Assembly: GCA_903920145.1 (NCBI GenBank)
Contig: CAIXKV010000069.1
Coordinates: 5,509 to 69,508, forward strand
Direction of reading: 5' to 3'
Length of the DNA stretch: 64,000 nt
Source: an uncultured Rhodospirillales bacterium
Lineage (GTDB): Bacteria; Pseudomonadota; Alphaproteobacteria; Azospirillales; Azospirillaceae
The notes beneath the pieces were generated by a model. It saw only the letters and a list, made by a program, of their open reading frames with translations. It did not search any database and was not told where the DNA came from. Shown here piece after piece: positions 11,682-37,711 of this stretch; the stretch's first letter is position 1, and every line of letters begins with the position of its first letter. A program made the translations under genes and the position numbers.

Positions 11682-11691
11682 TTCAAAATCG

Positions 11692-11714
11692 CCGACTCGG
11701 TGATTCCGAGTCGG
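11692..11714. other. perfect 9-bp stem hairpin next to the iteron array
   Basis: CCGACTCGG - tgatt - CCGAGTCGG. There is no convincing T-run on the plus strand, so its function is unknown. Confidence 0.3.
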
Positions 11715-11882
11715 TGGCGTGGGGTGATGGCATTTGGCCAAAGAGTTTGTTTAAGACCAACGGCCCTAGACAATGATCCGTGCCGTTGGTATCGGCGGCG
11801 ACCGCCGCCGCGCGCCCATGTGCGCGAAGCCAAGGGCGCATCCGCTCCCTTGACCTGAGGGCCATTGTCGGCCCGGAAGCTG

Positions 11883-18824: not shown

Positions 18825-18964
18825 CCTGTGCTTCTTTCTTTTATCAGTTTCATGCCAAGCCGTGTGGCTCACGGAGAAACAAAACAACCTAAAGCTTTTA
18901 TTTGCGATTTGGAAGGCGATAGTATCCCGATTTTTAAGATTATCACATCAGAAAGGTTCTATGC

Positions 18965-21531: not shown

Positions 21532-21697
21532 GCGCCGACTTTCCGATAAAGGCAAACAGCGCCACCGCGCCGGATCAGCGTTGTGCTAGCACTGGGGAGG
21601 ACTGGTTGCCAAGGTGCCTTGGGCTGCTTTTGGTTTCAGACAGCCCTGCGCGCACCGGGCTTGCGTGGCTGGATCAAGAGGAAATGCTGTGATCTCA

Positions 21698-22522
21698 ATG
21701 CCTTATACTCTGGACGTGATCGGCCTTGGTCTGATCGGCGCCGTCATCGGCAGCTTTCTCAATGTGGTCATTCACCGTGTGCCGGTGATGATCGAGCGTG
21801 ACTCGCTGGACATCCAGGAGGGAGGCGAGACCGCCGGCGAACGCTATGACTTGGCCCTCCCCCCTTCGGCCTGTCCGCACTGTGGGCATCGGCTGCGGCC
21901 ATGGGAGAATATACCAGTCCTCAGTTACCTGATGTTGCGCGGACGATGCTCGGCTTGCACCGCCCCCATCGGTTGGCGTTACCCGGTGGTCGAAGTTGCC
22001 GCCACCGCCACCGGCCCTTTGCTGGTGGCGCATTTCGGCTTGACTGAACAGGCATTGGCGGCCACCGCCTTTGTCTGGTTCGCCATTGCCATCGCCGCTA
22101 TTGATCTACGCCACATGTTGATCCCTGACATGCTGTCTTTGCCATTGCTATGGCTCGGCCTGTTGGTATCGACGCAAAGCCTTTTCATCGCCCCTGCCAC
22201 GGCCATCATCGGTGCCGCCGCCGGATATCTGGCGTTTTTCATCATCAGTCGAGTCGGCGCCCGGTGCAGTGGCCGGGTTATCATGGGTGCAGGTGACGCC
22301 AAGCTTCTGGGGGCTATCGGCGCCTGGATCGGTTGGAGCCACCTGCCACAAGCGGCGGTGATCGCCAGCGTTCTGGGCAGTGTCGCAGGACTCGCCCTGA
22401 TCTTTCTGGGAAAACAGAATCGTTCACATCCAATTCCGTTCGGCCCCTTTCTGCTGATTGGTGGGATCGCGGCCTTGTTATGGGGAAGCGCACTGAGCAT
22501 GGCATTCGGCTTTCGAAATTAG
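21698..22522 (+). CDS. pilD: prepilin peptidase / N-methyltransferase (A24 family)
   Basis: GSFLNVVIHRVP, zinc-ribbon-like CPHCGH...CSAC, and the GAGDAKLLGAIGAW aspartate box. The internal MPYTL start is preferred over 21614. Confidence 0.85.
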   Translation: MPYTLDVIGLGLIGAVIGSFLNVVIHRVPVMIERDSLDIQEGGETAGERYDLALPPSACPHCGHRLRPWENIPVLSYLMLRGRCSACTAPIGWRYPVVEVAATATGPLLVAHFGLTEQALAATAFVWFAIAIAAIDLRHMLIPDMLSLPLLWLGLLVSTQSLFIAPATAIIGAAAGYLAFFIISRVGARCSGRVIMGAGDAKLLGAIGAWIGWSHLPQAAVIASVLGSVAGLALIFLGKQNRSHPIPFGPFLLIGGIAALLWGSALSMAFGFRN

Positions 22523-22978
22523 CCAATGGCCATTTTGGAGTTCTTTAACACTTCAATTTTTTACGAATAATGTAGTTACTAATCACTCATTGTGGCGATG
22601 GCAGCATCATACAGAATTAACTATTGCATAATAATATTAGTATATGACGGATCGATTGCGATCAATGCTTAGGCATACTGTCCATAACGATGGGCTTTTT
22701 AATGAATTTATTGTCATTTAGCTCTATTTTAACGTTTGGCCTGATCATCTTATGGCCCATTGTCGACTGCCCTCTCCGTGGCAAACAGATCAAATTACCG
22801 CAGATTCATCATCGAAACCGCCCCAATGCCCTATTGAATGTTGAAAGTAAGCGTCCCTTCGCGATATGACATCTCGGTGGGGCTTTTTCGGGAGTGAGTC
22901 CTTCGACTCTCGCGATAGGCTCGCAGTCTCTTTGTTTGCGCCTGGTCAGACGACTCCAGGCTTTTCGAAAGGTGCGGG

Positions 22979-25006
22979 ATGCGAAAGGCTACGAAGTGTC
23001 TCGGTGTCGCCATGCGCCGGGTGTTTCTGACGACGGCTGTTGTCATGTCGGTGGGGTCGATGGCTAAAGCCGCCGATATCCCATTGAGTAAGACGGAAGT
23101 CTTCGCAGAGAATGCCTTTGACGAAGATATCCGCACTGTCTTGCGTAAATTATTGGCAACCGATAGCCTCGCCGTGATTTTTCGTCCCGATGTCAAAGGC
23201 AGTGTGACCTACGATTTTACCAAAACACCGATTCCATTGCTTGGCGCCTTTAATAAGTTGATGGAAGAAAATGGCCTTGATTACGAATATAATGCCGACA
23301 CCAAAACTGTTACGATTCTGGTCAAAGGTCTGATCGAGACCACGTTCATTCCGCTCAAGAATAAAAATGTGACCGATGAGGCGATTAAAAGTGCCGCTCA
23401 TCATTTCGGTCTGGATCAAGAAGTTACCATTATTTATGACGCGCCCAGCAAAACGATCATGCTTAAAGGCAAGGCCGAGCGGGTTAAGGATCTCAGCGAT
23501 CTGATCGAGCGGTTGGAAACATCCGCCACCGAACGCGATAAGGCCGAGGCCGAGAACTTTGCGGCGGCTAGCTCGGCGGCCTTGTCCCAGGCCGAAGCCA
23601 TGAAGAGACAGGCCGAGGCCCAGCAGGCGGCCTATCGCCTGTCCCAAGAACAAAAAGAGCAAAATGACATTGATAGCATCCGGGTCGAAGTCATAAAGCT
23701 GCATTATGCCAGCGTTGGCCCGACCAAGGTGCAGTTTCAGGGTGAAAATGTCACCATTCCAGGGGTGATTGATACCTTGAATAATCTGCTTGGTGTGACC
23801 AATGCTAAAGCAGCCGCTCAAAATGAAACCGCGAAACCGAGTGCGTTTCCCACCTCATCGGTTCCGTCGTCGGAGCCCGGACATGGTGGCGGGACGACGG
23901 TCGACGAGAAATATCCGAGTGGTGCCGCCTCTCCGGGAGCCGCACAGCAGAGCAACCCCAGCGATTTCCACGGCACAATTTCCGCCGACGTCCGAACCAA
24001 TTCGGTGATTGTCCGGGGGACGCCTCGCGAAATCCAACAGGTTAAAGACCTCCTTCCCAAGCTTGATAAGCCGATGGAGCAAGTCGAGATCGAGGTCATT
24101 ATTGCCAATACCACCCAGGACTTTTCACGAAATCTGGGGTTGAGCCTGGGGAACGACACCGGATTGGTGGGGTCTGGAGCCGTTGGTGGCGCCTTTTCGA
24201 CGCTTCCGCCGAGCGTTGGCAGCTACTACACCACGCCGACCACGGCGGCGAGTACCGTCAACAACAACGTTTCGCCCTTGACGCTGGCGGGGACGACCAC
24301 CGGGGTTGGAAGTGTAGCCTCGCTGATCTTCCGAGGCTCCAATGCCACCCTGAACGCCCAGCTCAATGCGTTGGAGAGCAACAACCAGGGTCACATTGTG
24401 GACTCGCCTCGGGTGGTGACTATCGACAATGTGGCGGCCAAAGTCAGCCTGGACGGCACCACCTTCCTTGCCGTTCCGGCGGCGGCTAACGCTCCGGGCG
24501 GGTATATGACGGTTCCGGCGGGCACAACCCTGAAAATCACCCCCTCGGTCTTGCGGCGCGAGGATGTGGGGGGTGAAAACATGGTCCGCATGGTGATCGA
24601 AGCCGAAGCTACCGCCGTTGTCGCGCCGACCACGGCGACTGCCGGCCCCGGTCGCAATGGCGAGCAAATCCAGACCCAAGTGGTTATCCCCGATGGATCG
24701 ACCTTCATCATGGGCGGCTTGAGCCATATCGACCGAACCGAAAATTTGAATCAGGTTCCATTGCTGGGGGATATCCCGGTTGTGGGCGAGTTGTTTAAAA
24801 ACCGCGATACCAGCCGTGACTACAAGGACATCATGTTCTTCATCACGCCGAAAATCGTGCCCAAGGCCGCCCTCTATGCCAAAGATGTCGCCGAAAAGCG
24901 GTATCTCCAAGCGGAACGGGCGGAAATTGATCGGGTTGCCGATGGCGTTCGGAAGAAGAGCATGCTGCTGGACCTCGGCCATAAGTCCCTTCAGGACGAC
25001 GAATAA
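22979..25006 (+). CDS. secretin (PilQ/GspD/MshL class outer-membrane channel)
   Basis: Signal peptide, an N0-like domain, and a Glu/Ala-rich coiled segment. N3-to-secretin junction ISADVRTNSVIVRGTPREIQQVKDLLPKLD. C-terminal VPLLGDIPVVGELFKNRD...MFFITPKIV. Confidence 0.9.
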   Translation: MRKATKCLGVAMRRVFLTTAVVMSVGSMAKAADIPLSKTEVFAENAFDEDIRTVLRKLLATDSLAVIFRPDVKGSVTYDFTKTPIPLLGAFNKLMEENGLDYEYNADTKTVTILVKGLIETTFIPLKNKNVTDEAIKSAAHHFGLDQEVTIIYDAPSKTIMLKGKAERVKDLSDLIERLETSATERDKAEAENFAAASSAALSQAEAMKRQAEAQQAAYRLSQEQKEQNDIDSIRVEVIKLHYASVGPTKVQFQGENVTIPGVIDTLNNLLGVTNAKAAAQNETAKPSAFPTSSVPSSEPGHGGGTTVDEKYPSGAASPGAAQQSNPSDFHGTISADVRTNSVIVRGTPREIQQVKDLLPKLDKPMEQVEIEVIIANTTQDFSRNLGLSLGNDTGLVGSGAVGGAFSTLPPSVGSYYTTPTTAASTVNNNVSPLTLAGTTTGVGSVASLIFRGSNATLNAQLNALESNNQGHIVDSPRVVTIDNVAAKVSLDGTTFLAVPAAANAPGGYMTVPAGTTLKITPSVLRREDVGGENMVRMVIEAEATAVVAPTTATAGPGRNGEQIQTQVVIPDGSTFIMGGLSHIDRTENLNQVPLLGDIPVVGELFKNRDTSRDYKDIMFFITPKIVPKAALYAKDVAEKRYLQAERAEIDRVADGVRKKSMLLDLGHKSLQDDE

Positions 25007-25036
25007 GCGAGGGGATGAGACCAGGGAGGGGGAGTC

Positions 25037-25504
25037 ATGCTGCGGGTGATCACGTCGTTGAACTGGCTGATTGGATGTGTCGCCCTGGCCTTGGCGGCGG
25101 CTTACCCCTTCTATTATCAGGCCGGGGTGGCTGAGGCTAAAATGGCGGCCTCGGCGACCATGGATCAAATCGTTCAGGCGGAACGTCTAAAGGCGTTTGA
25201 GCCAAACGGTAGCGTTGTTTACTTCAGAATGAACCGGCAGGACATCATTCGGACCACTTTGCAGGTTCCCTTGGTGGGTGCGGCGGCTGATTTTACGTAT
25301 GATTCTTACTCGGATCACGATCATGCCCTCGTCGTTCGGGCCATGACCAGCGATGCCGCGTTGCGCAGAGGACGTCCACCGTTGCTGTATACTTACGCGG
25401 TGTCCGATGTGAACGGCTTGCCCAAGGAAGGGGGGCATGCCGAAGGAACCTGGGAACGATTGTCCGGCAAGTCCGTTGGTCTGCTGGCACTTGCGGGGTT
25501 GTAG
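25037..25504 (+). CDS. hypothetical membrane-anchored protein (pilin-shaped N-terminal helix but no prepilin cleavage motif)
   Basis: Strong RBS GGAGGGGGAG. N-terminal hydrophobic helix LIGCVALALAAAYPFYY followed by an amphipathic helix. No family recognised. Confidence 0.45.
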   Translation: MLRVITSLNWLIGCVALALAAAYPFYYQAGVAEAKMAASATMDQIVQAERLKAFEPNGSVVYFRMNRQDIIRTTLQVPLVGAAADFTYDSYSDHDHALVVRAMTSDAALRRGRPPLLYTYAVSDVNGLPKEGGHAEGTWERLSGKSVGLLALAGL

Positions 25505-25616
25505 CCGGGTTTTGTTGGAATGGTATCATCAGCGATGTCGGAGGAACGGCCCCCACCGTCGACCGTCGCTTCAAGTCATCGGCCAGGCCGGATCACGATT
25601 GCGCCGAACAGGAGGA

Positions 25617-26279
25617 ATGATGAAAGCGCGGACTCTTGGGGTTATCCTGACAGGTATGCTGGCTCTCTCCGCATGCAGCGTTTCCGAGCCGCCGACAGCC
25701 GCGCTCGGGACCACGCCGACTCTGCCAACCGCGCCCAAAGCCACAACCACGCTAGACAGCTTGGTTCTGAGCAAACCCCAATGGCGGGTTGGGGACGAAT
25801 GGCATTACAGCGACGGCTATGCAGTGCGCGTGAGCGAAATCACCGGCATTTTGGCAAAGTTCGAGCGGCTTGACGCGCCCGGTCAGTGGTTCGTCAACAA
25901 CGGCTTTTTCCGAGAGACGTCTCAGTCAGATGGCACGCCCCGGCAGGTGGTCTTCCGTTCCGAAAACCCGGACCCGTCCTTCTACACCCTGCCGTTGGGG
26001 CGGCCTCTGGTGTATGTCGAAGAATATCTGCGCGATAAAGACTTGATCCGTCACCAAACGTCATGGGTGGTGGAAAGCCGCGAGCGAATCACGGTGCCCG
26101 CTGGCACCTTTGATACCTTTGTCGTGGTGATACGCAAGCGTAGCCTGACCAGCGATTGGACCGCTTACGAACGTTGGTGGTACGCGCCTGCCGTAAAGAA
26201 TTACGTCCGCATGGAATACCGATATGGCGAGGAACCCGAAGGAGCGCGGGTTCTGATGAGCAGCAAGTTGGGGAATTGA
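25617..26279 (+). CDS. hypothetical lipoprotein
   Basis: AGGAGG RBS, MMKARTLGVILTGMLALSAC lipobox, and a beta-rich body. The ORF-track start at 25437 is upstream and overlaps the previous gene. Confidence 0.6.
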   Translation: MMKARTLGVILTGMLALSACSVSEPPTAALGTTPTLPTAPKATTTLDSLVLSKPQWRVGDEWHYSDGYAVRVSEITGILAKFERLDAPGQWFVNNGFFRETSQSDGTPRQVVFRSENPDPSFYTLPLGRPLVYVEEYLRDKDLIRHQTSWVVESRERITVPAGTFDTFVVVIRKRSLTSDWTAYERWWYAPAVKNYVRMEYRYGEEPEGARVLMSSKLGN

Positions 26280-26345
26280 TAGTCGCAGGGGTGGCTTTGG
26301 GGATTAAACCCGGTTTCGGCACTGTTTGAGGTCTGGGGTTATGAA

Positions 26346-27965
26346 ATGTCGGTGATGAACCAGACAAGAACCTTGGCAGCCGGAGCCGGGCGTTATTCGG
26401 ATTGGCGGCTCTTGGGCAAAGGGGGGACCGCCAATGTCTATCGGGTTCATGATAATGAACTGGATTATGATGTCGCGATTAAAATTCTCAAGCCGGAGAT
26501 TTTGACCAGCGCGGCCAATCTTGAGTTGATGAAGCAAAGCTTACGGACTGAAGTCCTAATTTCGCGTCGGCTTCGTCACCAAAATATTTGTGCCATTCAT
26601 GACCTTTATGACGGACCTGAAGGCTTTGGGACTGTCATGGATCTGATCGATGGGGTTGAGCTACGCGATTGGATGAATGAGCATTTCCATGATTTGCTGG
26701 ATACTGCCGAGTTAAGACTGGAACTATTGCGTAAAATTGCCGAGGCCTTGGCTTACGCCCATACCCTAATTGTTCATCGTGACTTGAAGCCGCAGAATAT
26801 CTTTCTTCGCAATGGCGATATTCGTCAGCCAGTGATTATGGATTTTGGATTTTCGGTCATCGGTGACAAGAGCGACCGAACCTCGATGCAGGCTTTTACC
26901 CCAAAATACATGGCCCCCGAACAATACGAAGACCCTCATAAAGTTGATCGACGAGCAGACCTTTTTGCACTGGGAATTTTGGCCTATGAACTTTTTACGG
27001 GACAGGTTCCACCCCACTCATTGAAAGATATTCTGAAGACCCGTAAGCCACCGCGCATTCCATTACACGAGATTGCGCCGCCTAGCGACCGGAATGCGGC
27101 GGTTCGTCCGGCTTTCGACCGAATTATTCTGCAATTAACGGCTTATGAACCGGAACGCCGGATTCAATCTGCCGACGAATTGGTTGTGGTTCTGGCAAAA
27201 TCCAAGGATCTGCTGTATCCGCCCGAAGACGTGAATAGTGGTGAAAGTCCGGCCCTGGGCTTCCGCTCGATGAATGCGGTTGAGGTACCGGGCGGTGAGT
27301 ATCTTTTGGGGGCACGGGCCGGTGCCAAGGGAACCAATGCCAACGAATTGCCGACTCGGCGCATCACCCTGACTCCCTTCAAGATCGATCGCATGCCCGT
27401 CACCAACCGCGAATATCTGGAGTATGCCGAAGGAACGGGACGGCGCAAACCGCCGCTGCATGATCATCCGGTGTTTGGAGCCCCCAATCATCCGGTGGTT
27501 GGCGTTACCTTCGATGAAGCCATGCAGTTTGCGCGATGGGCCGGCGGCATGTTGCCGTCCGAGGCCCAATGGGAATATGCCGCCCGCGCGGGGCAAAAAT
27601 TAATCGATTATCCCTGGGGAGACGACCCGCCGTCTCAAGTTCGCGCCAATATCAATAACATCTCTCGCACAACCAGTATTGTTGGCGCCTATCCTGAAGG
27701 TAGCAATTCACTGGAAATTTATGATATGTGTGGAAATGTTTGGGAGTGGTGCCTGGACGTTTATGAAGAAAAGTTTTATACAAATATTCAGCAAGGAACC
27801 TTAAATCCAGTTAATAATCCAAAAAATTCCAGTCCAAAATCCCTTCGCGTTCTGCGTGGGGGAAGTTTTCAGTCTTTTTCCGTGCAGGGTCGTTGCGCAT
27901 TTCGCTTTTTTGCCTCTTCCTTCGAATCCCGAAACGATATCGGGTTTCGTTTGATCTATAGCTAA
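26346..27965 (+). CDS. Hanks-type Ser/Thr protein kinase fused to a C-terminal FGE/SUMF1 (sulfatase-modifying-factor-like) domain; no TM segment seen
   Basis: Kinase motifs are intact: GKGGTANVY, VAIKILK, HRDLKPQNIF, DFGFS, YMAPEQ. C-terminal FGE-like motifs: MPVTNREYLEY, HPVVGVTFDEAMQFARWAG, LPSEAQWEYAARAG, GNVWEWCLD, RVLRGGSF, IGFRL. Confidence 0.85.
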   Translation: MSVMNQTRTLAAGAGRYSDWRLLGKGGTANVYRVHDNELDYDVAIKILKPEILTSAANLELMKQSLRTEVLISRRLRHQNICAIHDLYDGPEGFGTVMDLIDGVELRDWMNEHFHDLLDTAELRLELLRKIAEALAYAHTLIVHRDLKPQNIFLRNGDIRQPVIMDFGFSVIGDKSDRTSMQAFTPKYMAPEQYEDPHKVDRRADLFALGILAYELFTGQVPPHSLKDILKTRKPPRIPLHEIAPPSDRNAAVRPAFDRIILQLTAYEPERRIQSADELVVVLAKSKDLLYPPEDVNSGESPALGFRSMNAVEVPGGEYLLGARAGAKGTNANELPTRRITLTPFKIDRMPVTNREYLEYAEGTGRRKPPLHDHPVFGAPNHPVVGVTFDEAMQFARWAGGMLPSEAQWEYAARAGQKLIDYPWGDDPPSQVRANINNISRTTSIVGAYPEGSNSLEIYDMCGNVWEWCLDVYEEKFYTNIQQGTLNPVNNPKNSSPKSLRVLRGGSFQSFSVQGRCAFRFFASSFESRNDIGFRLIYS

Positions 27966-28007
27966 TGCTTTTTGAGCCAATCCCTACCGTCTAGTATCTC
28001 GAAACGG

Positions 28008-30482
28008 ATGTCGTGCATGACCATTCTCCCCTCTCAGGTTCCCGACATCCACCTCGCCATCATCCAAGCCGATGGAGAGGAGCGAGGTATTCTGCTGGAT
28101 CACCGCCGCGACCGCTATGTTATGGGGCGACGCGAGGCACAATTGGGAACATCGGTTGATATTCCACTGCCTGACCGTCATGTGTCGCGTCGACACTGCG
28201 AAATTACCGCTGATCGCGTGAATTACGGCTGGACGATTCGCGATCTTTTGAGTTCTAATGGCACCAGAATCAATGACGAGCTGATTTCTGACGTTCCAGT
28301 TCCTCTTTTGGACGGCCAAAAGATCACAGTCGGATTAACCTCCCTGACGGTTCGTTTTGACTATGAAAGCGCCGTAGCCGCCGGCGAGCAGGACTTGATG
28401 CCAGAACCCACCGGAACGGTGATCGAGAGCAGCGTCGCAGAGGGTACGGTGTTATTCGGCGCACCTGGGCAAGGGGGCGAAACCGTCCTTTTCGCGCCAC
28501 CCGCCTCGGCTGTTCTCCCAACGGAAGACCGTCGAGCAACGGACTCTTTTGCGCCAACGATGTTGGTAGACGAGGGTAACGATCAAACCATAGCAACCGC
28601 CTATAGGCCAACAGCGGCCTCAGAACCAGCCTTAAAGCCGACTACGGGCCGTGAAGCCACTATTACGATTACACGCAAGACTGCTGCATCGCCAACACCG
28701 ATGGCACGCCCCAGTAATACGCCTTCCAGTCGTGCCAACCGACGTCAGGAGTTGCAAGACGCAGGCTTTCGAGGCATTGCCCTGGATATTGCTGTGGATG
28801 TTTTCCGCGAAGAAGCGCGCTTATCGGCGCTCTGCCGACAGGCGGCGGAAACCGGCAAGACCTTCTTCCGGGTTTTAGCCAATGACCCGACCATTAAGGC
28901 CCATAAGGAAATTTATGAGTATGTGGCCAAATCGCTTAAAATACCGCTGGTTGACGATGAAAAATATATTATGGAGCAAGCTATTGAAGAAAAATGGCTG
29001 ACTTACGCTCATGCCGCTAATATTGGTGCAGTTTTGCTTCGAAATTCCGATACCGATGTGGCTCTAATTGCGACGATTGATCCTTATGATGTGATAATGT
29101 CAGACTGGATCGCGGCCAGCGCGAATGTTAAAATAGTTGAAAAGATTTTAGTTTTACCGACGGTGTTTCAATCAGCGCTTCAGCGCATGAAAAACCGGAC
29201 TGACGAAGATGATAGCAGTGCTGCGGTTCTGGTCATTAATCTTGATAGCGAAACAGAACGCGAAGTTCAGCTACGGGTGGAAAGCGTCGAGGTTCCCAAA
29301 ATTGTCAATTACTTCCTGCAAAAGTCATTTTTCGAAGGCGCTTCGGATATTCATATTGAACCTACTGAAGACTTCTTATTGGTTCGTAATCGCGTCGATG
29401 GGATTCTTCATGAATTAACGACACTTCCAGCATCAATGCATCCTGAAATTGTCTCTCGTGTTAAAATTCTTTCTGGAATGGATGTTGCTGAAAAACGGCG
29501 TCCACAAGATGGGCGCATTGGAACACTTATTCGTGAAAATGCTATTGATGTTCGTGTTTCATCTTATCCGACAATCTATGGTGAAAAGATCGTAATGCGC
29601 TTGCTTGACAAGAACGCATTGCGCCCATCGCCAGAACATCTTGGCATGATTTCCCGTGATCTTAGATTGCTTTATGACAAATTGGATGCACCGTTCGGGT
29701 TGGTGATGATCAGTGGACCGACAGGGTCGGGTAAAACCACCACATTATACTCGTGTCTCAGCTACATTGATAAAAAGACCAAAAACGTCCTGACAGTAGA
29801 AGATCCGGTTGAATACCGCCTGAAAGGCGTCCACCAGATGCAGGTCAATGAAAAAATTGGCCTGACTTTTGCTTCGGGTCTGCGCACTATTTTGCGCCAA
29901 GACCCGGATGTCATCATGGTTGGCGAGTGTCGCGATGGTGAAACGGCGGGTATGGCCATTCAGGCCGCCTTGACGGGTCATATTGTCTTTTCAACCATCC
30001 ACACCAACGATGCGGTCGGGGTGATTCCGCGCTTGATTGATATGGGCGTTGAGCCGTTTCTTGTGGCGAACTCGGTATCGCTCTGTATTGCGCAACGGCT
30101 GGTGCGTCGAATCTGTAGGCATTGCCAAACCCCGGAAGAGGGGCAATCGGTGCTGGAACGGCTGCATAACGATGCCATTTCTGATGAACGCTTGGCCGCC
30201 CTTGGTATTGTGGTTGATCCTGATTTGACGTATGTCACGGGTCGAGGATGTGTTCACTGTCGAAACACTGGCTATCAGGGCCGGCAGGCGGTGTTTGAGA
30301 TTTTCGAAATTGACCAAGATGCTCGCGCCGAGATTGTTTCCCCGACCTTTGATGCCAACGTGATGCGGCGTCGGGCCCGAGAACGGGGCATGACCACCTT
30401 GATTGGTCACGGATTGATGCTGATTGACGAAGGCATGACCACCCACTCTGAAGTCGTTCGCGTCCTGGGTGAGGCATACTAA
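28008..30482 (+). CDS. GspE/PilB-class secretion/pilus-extension ATPase with N-terminal FHA domain and a long Thr/Ser/Pro-rich linker
   Basis: FHA motifs: MGR...SRRH...SSNGTRIND. The linker is about 130 aa of low complexity. A T2SSE-N-like domain follows. Walker A SGPTGSGKTTTL, Walker B-like VIMVGECRD, and tetracysteine CRHC...CVHC. The ORF-track start at 27972 is TTG; the first ATG is at 28008. Confidence 0.9.
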   Translation: MSCMTILPSQVPDIHLAIIQADGEERGILLDHRRDRYVMGRREAQLGTSVDIPLPDRHVSRRHCEITADRVNYGWTIRDLLSSNGTRINDELISDVPVPLLDGQKITVGLTSLTVRFDYESAVAAGEQDLMPEPTGTVIESSVAEGTVLFGAPGQGGETVLFAPPASAVLPTEDRRATDSFAPTMLVDEGNDQTIATAYRPTAASEPALKPTTGREATITITRKTAASPTPMARPSNTPSSRANRRQELQDAGFRGIALDIAVDVFREEARLSALCRQAAETGKTFFRVLANDPTIKAHKEIYEYVAKSLKIPLVDDEKYIMEQAIEEKWLTYAHAANIGAVLLRNSDTDVALIATIDPYDVIMSDWIAASANVKIVEKILVLPTVFQSALQRMKNRTDEDDSSAAVLVINLDSETEREVQLRVESVEVPKIVNYFLQKSFFEGASDIHIEPTEDFLLVRNRVDGILHELTTLPASMHPEIVSRVKILSGMDVAEKRRPQDGRIGTLIRENAIDVRVSSYPTIYGEKIVMRLLDKNALRPSPEHLGMISRDLRLLYDKLDAPFGLVMISGPTGSGKTTTLYSCLSYIDKKTKNVLTVEDPVEYRLKGVHQMQVNEKIGLTFASGLRTILRQDPDVIMVGECRDGETAGMAIQAALTGHIVFSTIHTNDAVGVIPRLIDMGVEPFLVANSVSLCIAQRLVRRICRHCQTPEEGQSVLERLHNDAISDERLAALGIVVDPDLTYVTGRGCVHCRNTGYQGRQAVFEIFEIDQDARAEIVSPTFDANVMRRRARERGMTTLIGHGLMLIDEGMTTHSEVVRVLGEAY

Positions 30483-30483
30483 G

Positions 30484-31530
30484 ATGGCCGGCGTTTCTCG
30501 CGTCCATATGATGATCTTCACCCAGCAGTTCGCTTCTATGTTGCGAAGTAAGCTGCCATTGGTGGATGTTCTGGACAATCTGGCGGCGGAAACGCCTCAG
30601 AAAAAGTTGCGCGCCGCCATCGAAGAGGTTTCGGAAGAGGTTCAGCATGGCGTGGATTTGGCCGACGCCATGGCCCGACATCCCCGGATGTTTGACAGTG
30701 TTTATGTCAATGTGGTGAAAGCCGGGATGGAATCGGCGAGGTTGGCTGGTTCATTGACTGAAATTGCCCATTATCTCAAAGTGATTCACGATACAGAACG
30801 AAAAGTACGATCGGCGATTACCTATCCTGTGATCGTAATGATTGCATTTTTTGGTATTTTTAATGGTATGGTTTTTGGTATTCTTCCTCGCTTCCAGGCG
30901 ATTTTTGCGAATTTGCATAAAGCATTACCAGCACCGACCCAATTGTTGCTCGATATGGGTGCGTATTGGGGAGCCAATTGGACCTGGATTGTCGGCTCTT
31001 TGGTCTTGTTGGTGATCAGCTTTCAAGCCTGGGTCCGAACGCCGGACGGCAATGCTGTTTTTGATCAATACAAGCTAAAGTTGCCGATGCTGGGGCCGTT
31101 GTGGCGTATGGCCGCTTTGGCGCGCTTTCTGCGGACCTTGGCGGTTCAAGTCGAAAACGAAGTCGCAGTGTTAGCAGCCTTGCGATTGGCTGCCGATACC
31201 TGCGGTAATGTCTTTGTACGCGAAACCATTTATGATATTGCCGCTGATGTGGAGCAAGGCCGTAGCCTATCGGTCAGTTTCCGCGATCATCGGGTTTTTC
31301 ACGGTATCGTGGTTCAAATGATCGCAGCCGGCGAAGAAGCTGGATCATTGGATGAATTGTTAATGTCTTCAGCGGATTACTTTGATAATCTGTTGCAAGA
31401 TCGCCTTGATCAGATTACCCAATTGATCAATCCGATCTTGACCATCTTCGTGGGCCTCGCCACAGCCGGCATGATGATCGCGGCCTTCCTGCCAGTGTTC
31501 CAAATGGGCAATTTGGCCGGCGGCCACTGA
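30484..31530 (+). CDS. GspF/PilC-type inner-membrane platform protein
   Basis: Two GspF-like repeats (FTQQFASMLRSKLPLVDVL ... AAGEEAGSLDELL) and three TM segments. The ATG at 30484 follows the ATPase stop by 1 nt. Confidence 0.85.
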   Translation: MAGVSRVHMMIFTQQFASMLRSKLPLVDVLDNLAAETPQKKLRAAIEEVSEEVQHGVDLADAMARHPRMFDSVYVNVVKAGMESARLAGSLTEIAHYLKVIHDTERKVRSAITYPVIVMIAFFGIFNGMVFGILPRFQAIFANLHKALPAPTQLLLDMGAYWGANWTWIVGSLVLLVISFQAWVRTPDGNAVFDQYKLKLPMLGPLWRMAALARFLRTLAVQVENEVAVLAALRLAADTCGNVFVRETIYDIAADVEQGRSLSVSFRDHRVFHGIVVQMIAAGEEAGSLDELLMSSADYFDNLLQDRLDQITQLINPILTIFVGLATAGMMIAAFLPVFQMGNLAGGH

Positions 31531-31548
31531 ACGAAGGAACCCAAAGCC

Positions 31549-32289
31549 ATGGCCATCGATCATCACAAGATCATCAAACCAGCCCCAGCCACGCGGCGAC
31601 GCGGCTGGGCTGGCTTTACCCTGATCGAGCTGATGGTGGTGATTGCCATCGTCGGTATTTTGGCGTCGATTGGGTTGCCGATGTACTCGAATTATGTACT
31701 TCAGAGTAACTTAAATCAAGCCTTGCCAAATATGATGGCCATTGCGGCCAAAGAGCGTACTCATTTTAATCGAACAGGTTATTACCTGGCGACAGGTGAT
31801 GAGCAAGAACTTCAACAAAAGCTTGGCCTGAATCTTCATGATCAAGGTGATTTTTGTTTTATGGTTCTTTGTGTCGCCGAAACAGGCTGGGCTTGTGGGA
31901 ATTATGATACGGGTACGGTTGGCTCCTATAATGCTTCGCCTACAAGTGCGGATTTTGGAAGCAGCGTCATTACAACCCCAGATTCTGATACGGTTACGCC
32001 GCAGTTTCAGGTTATTGCGGTACTGCGCCAGCAAGGCGCCAGCGCAGCCAGTGATCCTTCAACGGTTACGGGTAATGGATTGTCCTGTAGTGTAAGCACG
32101 AATCTTGCGAAGGCCCGTCCTAGTTCTTGGATCGCGTCTGCTGGTACTCAGGGCGGCCAAGGAAGAGTTGTCGTGTTGAGCTATCCTCAGCCTGTGGATG
32201 GAACGGCAACAGCTGTGACGATCGGCACTCACACCTCAGACCTTGTGTGGTCCAATGGCGTGACTCTTACCGACGCCCTGAGCAATTGA
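31549..32289 (+). CDS. prepilin (probable major pilin/pseudopilin) with a 22-aa leader
   Basis: MAIDHHKIIKPAPATRRRGWAG|FTLIELMVVIAIVGILASIG carries the class III signal with Phe+1 and Glu+5. The C-terminal half is Ser/Thr-rich. Confidence 0.8.
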   Translation: MAIDHHKIIKPAPATRRRGWAGFTLIELMVVIAIVGILASIGLPMYSNYVLQSNLNQALPNMMAIAAKERTHFNRTGYYLATGDEQELQQKLGLNLHDQGDFCFMVLCVAETGWACGNYDTGTVGSYNASPTSADFGSSVITTPDSDTVTPQFQVIAVLRQQGASAASDPSTVTGNGLSCSVSTNLAKARPSSWIASAGTQGGQGRVVVLSYPQPVDGTATAVTIGTHTSDLVWSNGVTLTDALSN

Positions 32290-32297
32290 CCCCGGCC

Positions 32298-33071
32298 ATG
32301 ACCCAACCCATCCGCGCCCGCTCACAATCCGGCTTTACTCTGATCGAGGTCATGATCAGTTTCGTATTGTTGCTGGTATTGATGATGGGGATGAATGCGT
32401 TATGGACTCAAGTTTCGGCTCAATTTGATCTGACGACCTATCGCGAGAAGGCTATTTTACGCCTCAGCGGAGAGATGACGCGCCTTGTTAATTTATATAC
32501 AAGTGCTGAATATGGATTTATGGACAATTATTTAACGGATACGACTGCTGTAGATTATACCAAGAATTTACCGACCGATATGGGAAGCTATATTTCTATT
32601 TCTGCAAGTTCATCAACAGTACCAGCTAATGGTAAGCGTCTTATTTATGCTCTTGGGGATGTCAAAACACCTGTTTATGTTGGCGCAGATGCGGGGACTA
32701 GTCTTTCTCAGTTTATTCAAACAATCAATCCAGATGGTACATCTCCATCGGCATCTACAGTATATAGTTACATCCTGGTGCTAGGGTCTGGGGATGCCAC
32801 ACGAAATTATGTCTGGCTTGACAATGGTGCAAGTTCAATCGTTGCACAACTAAGTTGGGATATGTACCAGATATCTTCCGACTCGCTCCCATGTTATAAT
32901 GGAAATGGAAGTGTTCCAGGTACAGGTAGTGATGGTAGATGCTATTTATTAACTGTTTATATTGATTATCCATTTCGATTTAATCGAGTCGACAATACTG
33001 TTTCTGAAATTCCTGGCATTCCCATTGATACAGTCACTGCTCAGACCATTGTTGGGAAGCTCTTCCGATGA
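32298..33071 (+). CDS. minor prepilin-type protein
   Basis: MTQPIRARSQSG|FTLIEVMISFVLLLVL. The internal ATG at 32298 is preferred over the ORF-track start at 32127, which overlaps the pilin gene. Confidence 0.75.
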   Translation: MTQPIRARSQSGFTLIEVMISFVLLLVLMMGMNALWTQVSAQFDLTTYREKAILRLSGEMTRLVNLYTSAEYGFMDNYLTDTTAVDYTKNLPTDMGSYISISASSSTVPANGKRLIYALGDVKTPVYVGADAGTSLSQFIQTINPDGTSPSASTVYSYILVLGSGDATRNYVWLDNGASSIVAQLSWDMYQISSDSLPCYNGNGSVPGTGSDGRCYLLTVYIDYPFRFNRVDNTVSEIPGIPIDTVTAQTIVGKLFR

Positions 33072-33808
33072 CATTATTAAATATAGCCCGTCATCGTGAA
33101 TCTGGGTTTACCTTGATTGAGCTAATGGTTGCCATGACCATTGGTATGATCGTGATTATGGCGGCAACTGAGTTGTTTCTTGATGCGGTTGGAGTTGCCA
33201 ACACCCTAGAACGTCAAGCCACACTGAATCGTCAAGCACGGGAAATGTATGATATTCTTTCATTGGGAGGTCATAGGATTGGAATCAACGTGACAAATTC
33301 GAATGCGAGCGTCGTTGATCCGCTTGGAAATTACGATGCGGACGTGAATTATCATTATATTTTTGGTCTTCGCGGGCGTTTTTATCAAACGTCTACAGGT
33401 AGGATGGGCTGGTCATTTCAGACGAGTCTAATGGAGGTCAGTGCATCTGGTGCGTTACTGTATAAGCTTGCGCTATACCCAACAAATAAAACGCCCACTC
33501 AAATAACAATACCTTCATATGTTATAATCGATAGCGATCAGATAACAGAGACAACATTTAACTGTAATGCGCAATACGATCCTCTTATTGAATGTGCATC
33601 GGACAGCACAACACCAACTATGTATGGATATTTCCGTTCCGACAGTTCTGCTCCTCCTTCTGGCCCGCATGCTGTTCAGAGTGTTGTTTTTGATTTATTT
33701 GATCCGGTCTATTATTCTCCCGCTCAGTTGGTCAATGAAGCCGAGGAGGATCGACGGACGGTTTATTGGACAGCGTATGCCTCTGAGATTGACAGGACTC
33801 CGCCATGA
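33068..33808 (+). CDS. minor prepilin-type protein (PilW/GspJ-like position)
   Basis: MTLLNIARHRESG|FTLIELMVAMTIGMIVI. Its start overlaps the upstream stop (ATGA). Confidence 0.75.
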   Translation: MTLLNIARHRESGFTLIELMVAMTIGMIVIMAATELFLDAVGVANTLERQATLNRQAREMYDILSLGGHRIGINVTNSNASVVDPLGNYDADVNYHYIFGLRGRFYQTSTGRMGWSFQTSLMEVSASGALLYKLALYPTNKTPTQITIPSYVIIDSDQITETTFNCNAQYDPLIECASDSTTPTMYGYFRSDSSAPPSGPHAVQSVVFDLFDPVYYSPAQLVNEAEEDRRTVYWTAYASEIDRTPP

Positions 33809-34773
33809 CTAAAATGGAACATCCTCAGCGCGGCGCTGTGTTGTTGGTCGTCATGCTGCTCATGGTGGTCTTGATGCTGATTGCTGCCGGGTTGAGCAAT
33901 TATTTTTTAACCTCTGAAGACCAAGCTGTTGAAAATCTTTTGATTGACGTTAGAACCTATTGGGCACAAATGGGTCACGTTTATTATGTCCTTAGCCGAA
34001 CTGGTGGCCAAGGCGTTTGTGGGAGTCTTGATAATAGTACTAATAATCAAAAATATTATTGCGGAACAACGTCAACATCCGCACCAACTGATGATGATTC
34101 TAATGGAACTTGCGATTCTAGCGGATCATGCGGTAAAATTAGCTCAGAATCTACCGCTTACGCGAAGTCAGATGTTTTTACCAATTCATATACTCCACCT
34201 TCTTTTACCGGACGATCATTAATTAATAATACTCCAGCTTCAAGTTTACAGAAATATTCAGTAGAATTAGATACTCTTGACAAACTGGCAAGCAGTTCTG
34301 CCCCCACTGTGATTGATCCGGGGTCAAGACGTTGGACTTTTCCACAAGATAATACTTATGGAGAATCCAATGTTACGACAGATTATTATATAACGTTACG
34401 ATCGGTTGTTAGAGATCGCAGAATGACGGACCAAAATGGTGCATTTGCATCACCGCCAAGTTATCCAGCAGACATTACGAGCAGCGCTCCGCAAAAACAC
34501 CCACAATTAAGAATGGATATTTCTGTTATTGATAGTGGAACTATGGTTTCTTCGCTTGGGCCGTCGATTAATGGTTTGAAAGACCGAGCCGACCGCCTGA
34601 CGATCGGGTTTGGTGTTACCGATAGCTATCTCTCTGACCCAGGTACTAATACATACACAAACAGAGGGTGCAATACACCATCGAATGTTACCTCATCATA
34701 TGAAGGCCAAGTTTGTATAGAATTCATCATGCGTAATGCTGATTTGCCTCTAACAAATTACATGACCCAGTAA
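33805..34773 (+). CDS. PilX/GspK-like minor component (hydrophobic N-terminus without a G|F cleavage site)
   Basis: QRGAVLLVVMLLMVVLMLIAAGL N-terminus, typical of PilX/GspK-type proteins. The body is Ser/Thr/Asn-rich. Its start overlaps the upstream stop. Confidence 0.45.
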   Translation: MTKMEHPQRGAVLLVVMLLMVVLMLIAAGLSNYFLTSEDQAVENLLIDVRTYWAQMGHVYYVLSRTGGQGVCGSLDNSTNNQKYYCGTTSTSAPTDDDSNGTCDSSGSCGKISSESTAYAKSDVFTNSYTPPSFTGRSLINNTPASSLQKYSVELDTLDKLASSSAPTVIDPGSRRWTFPQDNTYGESNVTTDYYITLRSVVRDRRMTDQNGAFASPPSYPADITSSAPQKHPQLRMDISVIDSGTMVSSLGPSINGLKDRADRLTIGFGVTDSYLSDPGTNTYTNRGCNTPSNVTSSYEGQVCIEFIMRNADLPLTNYMTQ

Positions 34774-34825
34774 ACCTAAAAACCAGCACAGACCACCCAC
34801 CCCCGACCCGACCGACGAGGATATC

Positions 34826-36835
34826 ATGTTTAAGTTGTTCAAGAAGCGTGAGGCGGAGGAGGCCAAGGCGGGCGAGGGGCGCTTTTTGGTTTATTTGCAT
34901 GTCGCCGATGACGGGTGGCGGGCGGCGATTGTTGACAAGCATCACGAACACGAAACCCGGATGATCGGCGACCAGGGCGAAGCGGCCAAGGTGCTGGCAG
35001 ATTTGCCCAAAGATCACGGGACCGAACAGGCGATTGAACAGATGTTTAAACTCGCCGGGGACGGTTTACGACAGCATGAATCCCAGCGGATTTCCGATAT
35101 TTGTATCGTGATCGGCGATCCTAGGGTGATGTATATCGACATGCTGCCCGATATTTTTTCGTCAGCATCGACCGCAACTTTGCATGAATACGGACGCGCT
35201 AATCTTCGTTGTCGCGGGGTCTCTTTTGGTCTTGCTAAATTCGGGCCGGTGGATCGCGGCCTAGCTAAGGCCAGCGGCGGCGTGATCGCCTTCATCGATG
35301 CGGCCCGGTTGGGCGCCTATCTGTCGCGGCTCGATCGGCTGGCACTCAAAGTGCGGGCCGTCACGCCGATTTCCGACATCATGCTTCGCCAAGCCCACAG
35401 CAAGCCGCATTCCGGCCCGGCGGTATCGCTTTATATTGGCGCCCTGTCCAGCATTCTGGTGTTGTCCAATCCGACCATTGGCGCCATCGTCCGGCGAGTT
35501 CTACCCTTCGGTGTCGGCGTCTTGGGGCGGTTGCTGGCGGAGGGCAGCGGGGTTTCGTATGATCAGGCCATGGGGTCTTTGGCCGAGCAGGACTTGATTT
35601 CGGAGTTGCGGATCGGCGGGGAAACCGATGGCTTTGACACCCTGACCAGTAGTCCAGCCGAACGCATTCTCGGCGGAGCGATCCGGAGCTTTTTGGCCGA
35701 TATTAACGCCTCTGTAGCCTTTTTCGAAGAACAGCGCTGCGCCGGTCGCCCGGTCTCCATGGATATTTACGGCGATCTTAGCCGAGTGCGCGGGCTAGAG
35801 CGGTTATTGCGGGAAAGCCTGTCTCAAGCTCCGGCTCCCCTGACCGTGACCTTCGAGACGCATTCGCTTGTCGATCTCATTCAAGCTTTACCCACCGAAG
35901 CCCCGCTGAATCTGTTGTCCGAGGCCACTGGCGATTTGCGGATTGGCGCCGTCACCTACACCTTCCAAAATCAACAGTTCCGTCCATCCGAAGAGGTTCG
36001 GCGCGAAGTCGCCGCACGCGATCAAGCCAAACCTCAGCATCGCCATGCCAGCAAAACAACTCGAGCCCGCCGGGGTGCGTCGGAAGCGGCCGCCAAGCCG
36101 TCTTTGTTGGCCCAGTTGCGCGCTCGTCTGAACGGACAAACCCAAGGCGGGAGCGAAGAAGACGCCGCCGTTCGCCGTATGGATCAACAGGGATTCGCAG
36201 TATTGGGGCTGTTGGTGGTCGGTGTGGGCTATCTCTTATTTAATATGAGCAGTGATGCCCATAATAAATATAATAATCAAATCGCCGCTTTTGATCTTGC
36301 CATGGCCGACAATAGCCAACGTCATCAGGCTGTCTCCAGCGGTGGGATTCAGTATCATGCTGCCGATGATGTCGATAAAGTCTTATGGACCGAAAAAATT
36401 ATTTCGTTATCAAATCATTTAACCAGTGAAATTTGGTTAACTGATCTTTATTTAACAACAGAAACCAGAACAATCGATAAAGTTGCGCTTAGTACTAAGA
36501 AGTTAGTTATGGAAGGGGCTGTATTACCCTCAACCGATGGCCATATCCAGAAAATTGCCGAGTATATTGATGCCTTACAAAATGATAAAAGCCAGTTTAT
36601 GAGCGATTTCCGAGATATTACCTTTGAAGGACTATCGATTGATACCAGTGAATCTGATCAAGTGGTCCGTTTCACGATCGAGGCTTGGTATGATGAATCC
36701 AAACGGCAAGAGATTGTCAGCACCGCTGCCGCCGCCAATGGAACCGGCGGTATCGATGCCATGAAACAAGCGACAGAGCAACATAACCAGCAGCTCCAAA
36801 AAATTCCAGGCATGGCCCCGGCTGGAGCCCACTAA
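34826..36835 (+). CDS. fused PilM-like (actin-like ATPase fold) - TM - PilN-like assembly protein (MshI-like architecture)
   Basis: Cytoplasmic part with SLYIGALSSILVL...LPFGVGVLGRLLAEGSGVSYDQAMG (PilM-like), a charged linker, and TM GFAVLGLLVVGVGYLLF. The periplasmic part has EIWLTDLYL...LVMEGAVL...VRFTIEAWY (PilN-like). Confidence 0.5.
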   Translation: MFKLFKKREAEEAKAGEGRFLVYLHVADDGWRAAIVDKHHEHETRMIGDQGEAAKVLADLPKDHGTEQAIEQMFKLAGDGLRQHESQRISDICIVIGDPRVMYIDMLPDIFSSASTATLHEYGRANLRCRGVSFGLAKFGPVDRGLAKASGGVIAFIDAARLGAYLSRLDRLALKVRAVTPISDIMLRQAHSKPHSGPAVSLYIGALSSILVLSNPTIGAIVRRVLPFGVGVLGRLLAEGSGVSYDQAMGSLAEQDLISELRIGGETDGFDTLTSSPAERILGGAIRSFLADINASVAFFEEQRCAGRPVSMDIYGDLSRVRGLERLLRESLSQAPAPLTVTFETHSLVDLIQALPTEAPLNLLSEATGDLRIGAVTYTFQNQQFRPSEEVRREVAARDQAKPQHRHASKTTRARRGASEAAAKPSLLAQLRARLNGQTQGGSEEDAAVRRMDQQGFAVLGLLVVGVGYLLFNMSSDAHNKYNNQIAAFDLAMADNSQRHQAVSSGGIQYHAADDVDKVLWTEKIISLSNHLTSEIWLTDLYLTTETRTIDKVALSTKKLVMEGAVLPSTDGHIQKIAEYIDALQNDKSQFMSDFRDITFEGLSIDTSESDQVVRFTIEAWYDESKRQEIVSTAAAANGTGGIDAMKQATEQHNQQLQKIPGMAPAGAH

Positions 36836-36869
36836 ATCCGCGCGCTCTTGATCGGTTTTGAGGTGATTT

Positions 36870-37685
36870 ATGGACGCTTTTATTCGCAAATACCAATCCT
36901 TCATTGTCTCTCTGATCTTTGCATTGGTGGGTATTGCCGCTCTGTTATATTCCGCCGTGATCAGCCCGGCAACGGTGGCACAAGCTGATACGATGGCGCT
37001 GACGGCCGTCATCAAACGAGACAGCCAAGTTTTGGCCTTGATCCAAGCCAAAATGGCCGAAGATGTCAAGAGCGGCGATGATCAGGTGATTCATAGTCTG
37101 CCGGCTTTCCTGAAACGGATCAATGCCATTGCTCATGAGACCAATGTTATTGTTAATGAATTGGTCCCGTCAAAAGATCAAAATATTAAATTTACTATTA
37201 AGATTACCACAGATTTCTATACTTTCTTAAAATTTATCATGCGCCTGGAGTCCTTGGATGTGGCTATTAACGATATGCAAATCCATCCCTTTGATAGCAC
37301 CAAGAAAACGCCAATTCATGCAATCGAATTCACAATTACGCCTCGCCATGATGGCAAAGAGCTTGAAAGTTCCCGTATCGCAGCGTTGCGTGAAGCCGCC
37401 GAAGCGCCAGACCGGCGCAATCCGTTCCAACGCTTCACATATATCAATAAGGCGGTGACGACCGAAATCGATCTGACATGGATTTATAAAATGTCAGGCA
37501 TTGGGCGAATTGGTGACGAGCAAATCGCGACCATCGATAACAAAGATTATCGCAAAGGAGATTTGCTCGAGAATATGACAATCACAGCGGTTCTCAATGA
37601 TCGTGTTCAGCTTGAACGGAAAACAGATCATGGAACAGATCGCTATGTCCTCCGATTCCGTAATTCTGGAATCAAAAAACCTTGA
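36870..37685 (+). CDS. fused PilO-like / PilP-like assembly protein
   Basis: N-terminal TM, a coiled segment, and a ferredoxin-like FTIKITTDFYTFLKFIMRLESLDVAINDMQI (PilO/GspM-like). C-terminal beta segment GIGRIGDEQIATIDNKDYRKGDLL...VQLER (PilP-like). Confidence 0.4.
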   Translation: MDAFIRKYQSFIVSLIFALVGIAALLYSAVISPATVAQADTMALTAVIKRDSQVLALIQAKMAEDVKSGDDQVIHSLPAFLKRINAIAHETNVIVNELVPSKDQNIKFTIKITTDFYTFLKFIMRLESLDVAINDMQIHPFDSTKKTPIHAIEFTITPRHDGKELESSRIAALREAAEAPDRRNPFQRFTYINKAVTTEIDLTWIYKMSGIGRIGDEQIATIDNKDYRKGDLLENMTITAVLNDRVQLERKTDHGTDRYVLRFRNSGIKKP

Positions 37686-37711
37686 AAATAAGATCATTTG
37701 GGGTGCGTGGC

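Follow-up and report, generated by a model that had tools for sequence, protein, structure and literature searches.

A conserved Ser/Thr kinase–FGE-like protein beside an FHA-fused PilB/GspE-type ATPase suggests a threonine-phosphorylation module in a distinct type IV filament clade

Here we analyse a stretch of 64,000 nucleotides from an uncultured Rhodospirillales bacterium (contig CAIXKV010000069.1; hereafter ‘the window’, with positions counted from its first letter), in which a same-strand cluster at roughly 21614–38593 holds two adjacent genes of interest. The upstream gene (26346–27965, +; 539 amino acids) encodes a soluble Ser/Thr kinase that carries a domain resembling the formylglycine-generating enzyme (FGE), as recognized by the Pfam models Pkinase and FGE-sulfatase, and the downstream gene (28017–30482, +; 821 amino acids from its second ATG) encodes a PilB/GspE-type assembly ATPase headed by a forkhead-associated (FHA) domain and a linker, as judged from Pfam, PDB alignment and an AlphaFold2 (AF2) model. 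An original prediction, made from the DNA letters, had proposed that a Hanks-type kinase and an FHA domain act on the motor ATPase through phosphothreonine (pThr), with the Thr-rich linker as a possible acceptor. We combined domain annotation, structural models and the comparison of related loci to see what the two genes encode and how constantly they occur together.

By its sequence, the product of 26346–27965 is a Hanks-type Ser/Thr kinase whose catalytic core is intact. The kinase domain (residues 18–274; 26397–27167, +) matches Pkinase above the cutoff with E 3e-38 and carries, in the numbering of the window frame, VAIK (26472; K46), HRDLKPQN (26775; residues 144–151), DFG (26841; residues 166–168) and APE (26913; residues 190–192), all on the forward strand. 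Across an alignment of 41 kinase orthologues, K46, H144, K148, G168, P191 and E192 are invariant and R145, D146, N151, D166 and F167 are kept in 90% or more of the sequences, and the activation-loop threonines are not conserved, except for the generic Thr of GT-P-KYMAPE. The highest Kyte–Doolittle mean over 19 residues is 1.05, too low for a membrane helix anywhere in the protein, so that both of its domains should be cytoplasmic. A profile search of genome contigs with the kinase–FGE alignment returned no orthologues among the matches listed, the best being unrelated kinases or FGE proteins at no more than 35% identity; the contig search patterns GNVWEWC and HRDLKPxN were too generic.

The second domain of this protein (residues 311–537; 27276–27956, +) is FGE-like, that is, of the SUMF1/C-type-lectin-like kind, and was assigned by Pfam and by alignment. 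It matches FGE-sulfatase (PF03781) with E 5e-50 over model positions 5–254 of 255, and FGE entries in the PDB with E 1e-28. In the FGE of S. coelicolor, the copper-binding catalytic pair, set within LCH...SYC, is Cys272/Cys277. Aligned to that enzyme (2q17/6muj), the LCH with the site of the first catalytic Cys falls in a three-residue deletion of the window protein and the Cys of SYC aligns to a Ser, and the consensus of the 41 orthologues, RGGSFxSFxxQGRCAFR, agrees that the FGE catalytic cysteines are absent. An active FGE was therefore rejected as a candidate; because both cysteines are missing, we call the domain FGE-like rather than an FGE, and it is predicted to make no formylglycine. 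Relatives of the same fold in our comparison include the enzymes EgtB, PvdO, OvsA and SenA as well as the non-catalytic PorK/GldK, and the domain probably binds a ligand or a peptide, serving either to sense a signal or to dock a substrate.

The stop of the kinase frame ends at 27965, the next open reading frame (ORF) opens with a TTG at 27972, 6 nt on, and its first ATG lies at 28008, 42 nt on. The database protein P0001 (821 amino acids, 100% identical) and its homologues start at the second ATG, 28017, which makes the true intergenic gap probably 51 nt. In the product, Pfam finds an FHA domain (E 1.5e-14) and T2SSE (E 9e-120), along with a MshEN match that, at 19.2 bits, misses the cutoff of 23.1; by these matches and its alignments, the protein is of the PilB/GspE type with an apparently complete set of N1D, N2D and catalytic C-terminal domain. 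The N1D (GSPII/MshEN-like; residues 239–400, 28731–29216, +) is retained according to the sub-threshold MshEN match, the PilB alignment and AF2, and is followed by the N2D and catalytic C-terminal domain (29229–30479, +; Pfam T2SSE and PDB matches to PilB/GspE), with the Walker A motif GPTGSGKT (567), DPDVIMVGE (629), a His box (654–665) and the zinc motif CRHC...CVHC (700, 745). Residues 262–816 align to nearly all of Geobacter PilB (5tsg, 35–583), N1D included, and because this segment covers a whole PilB, the FHA domain and linker are an additional N-terminal module in front of an ATPase that is complete without them.

An AF2 model of the ATPase, built from an alignment of 46 sequences, has a mean predicted local distance difference test (pLDDT) score of 78.6 and shows a confident beta-sandwich at residues 10–115, disorder at 127–236, a confident N1D at 239–400 and a confident N2D and catalytic part at 405–818. 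Scores against NCBIfam models stay below the curated cutoffs, at 495 against 630 for GspE (TIGR02533) and 483 against 676 for PilB (TIGR02538). The R/G/Q positions of the cyclic di-GMP (c-di-GMP) motif of MshEN are, by inspection, absent from the family consensus, and the N1D looks degenerate as a binder of c-di-GMP.

The FHA domain (residues 10–115; 28044–28361, +) is assigned by PF00498, by alignment to FhaA and by AF2, with a pLDDT of about 90, and appears from its residues to have an intact pThr-binding pocket. These residues are G37 and R38, S57, R58 and H60 (SRRH, S57–H60), and N81, G82 and T83; VSRRH and NGT are identical in the FHA domain of Mycobacterium tuberculosis FhaA (PDB 3po8). 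Among 52 FHA-bearing orthologues, G37 is kept in 47, R38 in 51, S57 in 49, R58 in 48, H60 in 49, N81 in 46, G82 in 50 and T83 in 50, which corresponds to a conservation of 88–98%. The Pfam model Yop-YscD_cpl also matches this domain, and the FHA domain together with the linker weakly matches the TagH model TIGR03354 (E 4.5e-10).

Between the FHA domain and the N1D lies a disordered linker (residues 117–252, 136 amino acids; 28365–28772, +) with a pLDDT of about 30 over residues 127–236 and a composition rich in Ala, Thr and Pro (A21, T18, P14, E11, S10). It holds four motifs in which a Thr precedes two hydrophobic residues, at T134 (28416), T144 (28446), T156 (28482) and T181 (28557), all on the forward strand, as candidate phospho-acceptor and FHA-ligand sites. 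We counted such motifs in the region before the N1D of 65 homologues and compared the counts with shuffles of each sequence. T-[VILM]-[VILMF] occurs 235 times in the linkers where 34 are expected, and with an acidic residue two to three positions upstream 231 times where 8.7 are expected; the acidic version is individually significant (p ≤ 0.05) in 43 of the 65 sequences. The folded regions of these proteins show no enrichment (221 observed, 210 expected), nor do the linkers when Ser takes the place of Thr (22 observed, 27 expected), and the linkers of ATPases lacking the FHA domain carry 41 copies of T-[VILM]-[VILMF] where 7.9 are expected. Around the motif Thr, D/E is enriched at −4 to −2, Ala at −1, V/I/M at +1, I/V/L at +2 and Pro at +5, so that the motif takes the form [D/E][D/E]-A-T-[V/I/M]-[V/I/L] and recurs in several copies. 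At the alignment column of T144, 44 of 46 sequences have Thr, a figure inflated by the alignment of repeats.

FHA domains are pThr-specific, and the use of Thr only fits this specificity; an acidic-upstream, hydrophobic-downstream motif resembles the site preferences of mycobacterial and other bacterial Ser/Thr protein kinases. Enrichment of the Thr motif is the strongest new, though indirect, support for a role of the linker as a putative phospho-acceptor and FHA ligand. At another locus (L087, 4266–5130, the N terminus of its ATPase), near-perfect tandem units of the form ‘P(R/Q)DATLLAPP(T/M/A)DL’ give about seven or more Thr motifs, an array in which the putative acceptor motif looks to have multiplied recently by repeat expansion.

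Much of what the original prediction had said of the two proteins is borne out: the complete kinase motifs and the lack of a membrane helix by Pfam, motif positions, the orthologue alignment and hydropathy, the GR, SRRH and NG residues by the alignment to 3po8 and the 52 orthologues, where 46–51 keep the pocket, and the spacings of 6 and 42 nt as well as the Thr/Ser/Pro-rich linker of about 130 residues by direct inspection. The domains it had named for confirmation by hidden Markov models (HMMs) are likewise found, namely kinase, FGE-sulfatase, FHA and T2SSE, with MshEN sub-threshold. Its ‘FGE fusion’ stands as a matter of fold and model match and is narrowed to ‘FGE-like’, as both catalytic cysteines of a true FGE are gone. 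The signal-sensing part it had suggested for this domain is neither favoured nor contradicted by the comparisons. The idea that the FHA domain sits at the position equivalent to MshEN has to be given up, since the N1D is retained behind the FHA domain and linker, and with it goes the reading of the FHA domain as a replacement of MshEN: the new module was added upstream of a degenerate N1D, not substituted for it.

To see how constant the pair is, we gathered 17 related loci and searched the ORFs of all six frames with HMMs made from our alignments; counting the window, 16 loci have DNA upstream of the ATPase, and a metagenome search with a 13-sequence N1D alignment yielded nine loci. Homologues of the kinase and ATPase occur in Rhodospirillales (including the cultured Azospirillum rugosum), Magnetococcales, Magnetovibrionaceae and some metagenome-assembled genomes of Gammaproteobacteria, and a search of a plasmid database found no member of this ATPase clade. 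In all 16 loci with upstream DNA, a kinase–FGE gene lies immediately upstream of the ATPase gene on the same strand. The two genes overlap by 1–8 nt in four loci (L001, L002, L003 and L086); in L005 they are separated by a DUF29 gene and the FHA domain is present in two copies; and in L087 the upstream gene (522 amino acids) has no Pfam record, yet is 46% identical to the window kinase. Thirty of 69 proteins of the ATPase clade come from entries whose longest contig has exactly the length recorded for one of the top 120 kinase matches, and over 19 same-contig pairs the identities of kinase and ATPase to those of the window correlate with r = 0.96, as expected if the two were inherited as a unit. 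The link between kinase and ATPase is thus the most constant element of the module, and the conserved neighbourhood on which the original prediction depended is present throughout the clade sampled.

Twelve of the 16 loci encode the FHA domain and the ATPase as one protein, and the genuine fusion-less loci are L003, L004, L087 and L088, so that the fusion, although correctly described for the window, is not universal. In L003, the cluster has a separate FHA gene (2557–3465, −) whose product also contains a class III nucleotidyl cyclase domain, and a weak PP2C-like ORF lies at 18869–19612. In L004 (18658–20440, +), a clear PP2C phosphatase gene directly follows a separate FHA gene, which also lies beside the prepilin peptidase gene; a class III cyclase in the C terminus of this FHA protein was unsupported by Pfam and BLAST and was dropped. 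Because these two loci have separate FHA genes in the cluster, the kinase–FHA module stays with the machine even when unfused. No FHA domain was seen in L087 on its partial contig. L088 has neither an FHA domain nor a linker on its adjacent ATPase (593 amino acids), and its kinase (7434–9950, 838 amino acids) has a canonical kinase domain followed by a degenerate kinase-like domain (‘HAKGPHLALAPDQ’ and ‘LNWGW’ for HRD/DFG) and then the FGE-like domain. Proteins of about 830 amino acids, similar in length to this kinase, are found among the close kinase matches (P0121, P0125 and P0143). P0027 (553 amino acids, A3G18_08850), considered as an FHA-less counter-example, was rejected, as its start is mis-called and the open frame carries an FHA domain. 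In L094, the open frame at 9377–11665 spans 763 amino acids with a full FHA domain (E 9e-34), and the public start (553 amino acids) hides the fusion.

We infer that the two genes constitute a conserved threonine-phosphorylation module in a distinct type IV filament clade. Fairly likely, in our judgement from these comparisons, is that the kinase phosphorylates the Thr motifs of the linker and that the FHA domain reads them, thereby gating the assembly, docking or activity of the ATPase. The linker pThr would be bound by the FHA domain in cis, after the manner of GarA/OdhI, or between subunits of the hexamer, like the Rad53/Chk2 SCD-FHA pairing, or in trans by a separate FHA protein where the two are unfused; such binding would alter how the ATPase assembles, how it docks on a GspL/GspF-like platform or how active it is, and filament assembly would be gated post-translationally. 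The proposed kinase/FHA input on the motor, with the linker as acceptor, has thus gained comparative support from the adjacency in 16 of 16 loci, the FHA pocket, the FHA genes kept in unfused form (once beside a PP2C) and the Thr motif. A more specific version, possible but on present evidence somewhat unlikely, would make this a widespread and so far unrecognised form of post-translational control over PilB/GspE-type motors: it supposes that the FGE-like domain, as a peptide dock or sensor, places the kinase on the tandem [DE][DE]A-T-hydrophobic-hydrophobic array and that multi-site phosphorylation lets neighbouring FHA domains zip or release protomers, giving a switch-like assembly of the hexamer at the platform; in the variants with a separate FHA, the phosphorylated arm would recruit other effectors, such as the cyclase–FHA protein.

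Several points count against a phospho-switch of this kind. Its support is wholly comparative, and common descent links the sampled loci, whose counts are therefore not independent events. Scans found no PP2C in the window or in the loci with a fused FHA domain, the separate-FHA variants having one clear and one weak case, and the pathway here accordingly lacks a dedicated eraser. The link between the kinase and the machine does not strictly need the FHA domain or the linker, as L088 does without both, and a few FHA-bearing orthologues (for example, P0017, P0019 and P0033) score zero for the strict motif. The AF2 model also leaves the unphosphorylated linker undocked on the FHA domain, which is expected and carries no weight.

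Other readings of the same genes have to be set beside it. FHA domains are known to dock on kinases, as in KAPP KI-FHA, EmbR–PknH and FhaA–PknB. The FHA domain of the ATPase might likewise dock on the autophosphorylated kinase, or on a different phosphorylated part of the machine such as the 669-residue GspL-like protein of the cluster, the linker motif serving otherwise, for example in docking the FGE-like domain, whose fold binds peptides, as in FGE–substrate complexes. That L088 keeps a kinase–FGE protein without linker or FHA would fit this, and docking on kinases and the binding of Agrobacterium Fha to pThr-TssL are established precedents (PMC3953482). Yet the kinase offers no conserved activation-loop Thr for such docking apart from the generic one, and the module shows no conserved Thr cluster other than the linker motif, which stands in cis with the FHA domain in most loci; we regard this alternative as unlikely. 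A phospho-independent FHA domain that serves as a structural or adaptor module, the kinase then regulating pilins, cargo or transcription, could appeal to the FHA-like domains of type VII secretion EssC and type III secretion YscD, which work without binding pThr (PMC4925161), and to the Yop-YscD_cpl match. It is quite improbable, since the pThr residues are 88–98% conserved, unlike those of EssC/YscD-type domains, since an unfused FHA persists as a gene of its own beside a PP2C in L004, and since the adjacency of the kinase is invariant.

The role of the FGE-like domain could also be turned around, with an active formylglycine-generating or related oxidising enzyme working on a cluster protein (for example, a pilin) and the kinase as its accessory. 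The strength of the FGE-sulfatase match and the enzymes among the fold relatives (EgtB, PvdO, OvsA and SenA) would speak for this; but the domain has lost both copper-binding cysteines, is cytoplasmic without a signal peptide and has no sulfatase or CxPxR substrate gene beside it in the cluster, and it is the catalytic residues of the kinase that are invariant. We find this reading scarcely credible.

Assembly ATPases of type IV pili (T4P) and type II secretion systems (T2SS) are known to be controlled by c-di-GMP through MshEN, by PilZ/FimX-type partners and by chemosensory systems. A term search of a 2024 review on PilB control showed no Hanks-kinase or FHA input (PMC11656802), and no paper on kinase/FHA control of a PilB/GspE ATPase was found in the literature searched. 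The claim that no characterised motor is regulated in this way therefore holds within that literature, whereas the FHA–ATPase architecture itself has precedents. In Myxococcus xanthus, KilF, an FHA domain fused to a Tad ATPase, has been noted but is uncharacterised (PMC8460266), as are class III CpaF proteins, described as ‘FHA-IDR-CpaF’ (for example, Achromobacter E3HIW0; PMC12019362). Both resemble the window ATPase in the succession of FHA domain, disordered region and secretion ATPase of the same superfamily, but are of the CpaF/TadA type without an N1D or a zinc motif, whereas the window ATPase is of the PilB/GspE type with both; the passages on these systems make no mention of a conserved adjacent kinase–FGE gene or a repeated Thr motif. 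What is new here is the PilB/GspE-type motor, the invariant kinase–FGE partner and the repeated Thr motif, and what is of a known kind is gating by Thr phosphorylation and the FHA-fused filament ATPase.

In function, the module would resemble the threonine-phosphorylation pathway of type VI secretion systems (T6SS; PpkA/PppA/Fha1 in P. aeruginosa and PpkA/TssL/Fha in A. tumefaciens), where the machine's own cluster encodes a Hanks-type kinase and an FHA reader that gate its assembly post-translationally. The differences are that PpkA spans the membrane and has a periplasmic vWA domain, whereas in the window the kinase is soluble and its FGE-like domain cytoplasmic; that the genes here belong to a type IV filament machine, with the FHA domain fused to the motor ATPase itself; and that the Thr motif proposed as acceptor occurs in several copies on that very chain, with no cognate PP2C found in most loci. 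The module is not itself a member of that pathway, its cluster consisting of secretin, prepilin peptidase, GspF and pilin genes and no PP2C having been found in scans of the window. MshE/PilB ATPases with MshEN also receive regulatory input through their N terminus, and the window ATPase retains the N1D fold, but with a MshEN match under the cutoff, without the R/G/Q positions for c-di-GMP and with the FHA domain and linker added upstream.

GarA/OdhI and Rad53/Chk2 combine a Thr cluster and an FHA domain in one chain, GarA closing intramolecularly on phosphorylation and Chk2 and Rad53 oligomerising between molecules. The window ATPase shares this combination in a single polypeptide, but has the reverse order, with the FHA domain first, a hexameric secretion ATPase as its output and the motif [DE][DE]A-T-hydrophobic-hydrophobic instead of ETTS or TQ. 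For the kinase, the Proteo1 family of bacterial Ser/Thr kinases in a recent atlas likewise has a C-terminal FGE-sulfatase domain (bioRxiv 10.1101/2025.01.12.632604), a likeness of shared architecture; the atlas text leaves secretion, pilus and pili unmentioned and so draws no link to such a machine.

If the phospho-switch holds, the threonine-phosphorylation logic of T6SS would extend to a type IV filament motor, and the common, unexplained kinase–FGE architecture would gain a role together with a defined candidate acceptor motif. It may also inform on the uncharacterised FHA-fused Tad ATPases (KilF and class III CpaF), and as the cultured Azospirillum rugosum carries the system (L001), the hypothesis is directly testable.

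The remainder of the cluster, all on the forward strand, provides the parts of the machine. Upstream of the kinase lie genes for an A24 prepilin peptidase (21614–22522), a secretin (22979–25006), a conserved small membrane protein of about 150 amino acids that follows the secretin in all loci (25037–25504) and a conserved lipoprotein with the lipobox LSAC and a weak DUF3108-like match (25617–26279). The ATPase gene is followed by those for a GspF/PilC-type platform protein (30484–31530) and three prepilin-type proteins with G/FTLIE leaders (31549–33808, as 31549–32289, about 32298–33071 and 33068–33808), a 322-residue protein whose N terminus holds a hydrophobic helix and is weakly GspK-like (33805–34773), a conserved 669-residue bitopic protein with one membrane helix near residues 456–476 that keeps its position in all loci (34826–36835), a GspM/PilO-like bitopic protein with a weak T2SSM match (36870–37685) and, at the end of the cluster, a Sel1-repeat/SPOR protein also present in L004 and L086 (37682–38593). 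From its topology, the 669-residue protein is a candidate for a GspL-like protein or a PilM–PilN fusion; it had four relatives in the homologue search, a sequence search of the PDB gave only spurious matches to repeat proteins, and its AF2 model (pLDDT 42.6) is too poor for fold comparison.

Only one ATPase in the window matches the HMM of the T2SSE core, which leaves the window without a retraction ATPase. In its gene order, D-(x)-E-F-pilins-K?-L?-M?, the cluster is similar to a gsp operon, with sub-cutoff NCBIfam matches throughout, those to GspK and GspM being weak (E ~1e-3). Since every NCBIfam match of the cluster proteins falls below its curated cutoff, the machine represents a clade of its own among type IV filament (T2SS/T4P-like) systems and is not assignable to classical T2SS versus type IVa pili. 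Most of the related loci compared (L001–L005 and L086) have a prepilin-type gene of about 200 amino acids between the lipoprotein and kinase genes, and none is present in the window (25437–26346).

A scan for promoters and terminators gave a single plausible terminator, at about 38624, after the last gene of the cluster. Past the cluster end, a gene at 38679–41075 (−) encodes a 798-residue polytopic membrane protein with no Pfam match, beside a nucleotidyl-transferase gene (41090–41836). The part from the kinase to the GspM-like gene (26000–38000) has a G+C content of 46–52% against 58–63% in much of the flanking DNA, and positions 1–12000 of the window are also low, at 45–49%, and carry a RepA_C plasmid-replication gene (9698–10678) and a sigma-54 activator gene (5916–7199); low G+C and RepA_C may indicate horizontal acquisition or a plasmid or chromid context. 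Towards its right end, the window holds T6SS-type genes (57570–63801, −; 50662–52050, +; 43875–50414, −), which include an IcmF/TssM-like protein of 1364 amino acids, DotU/TssL and VasE/TssK, and near them a separate 462-residue FHA protein and three tandem OEP/TolC-like paralogues (699, 722 and 761 amino acids). With these genes and their separate FHA protein, the same replicon may carry a second FHA-linked machine.

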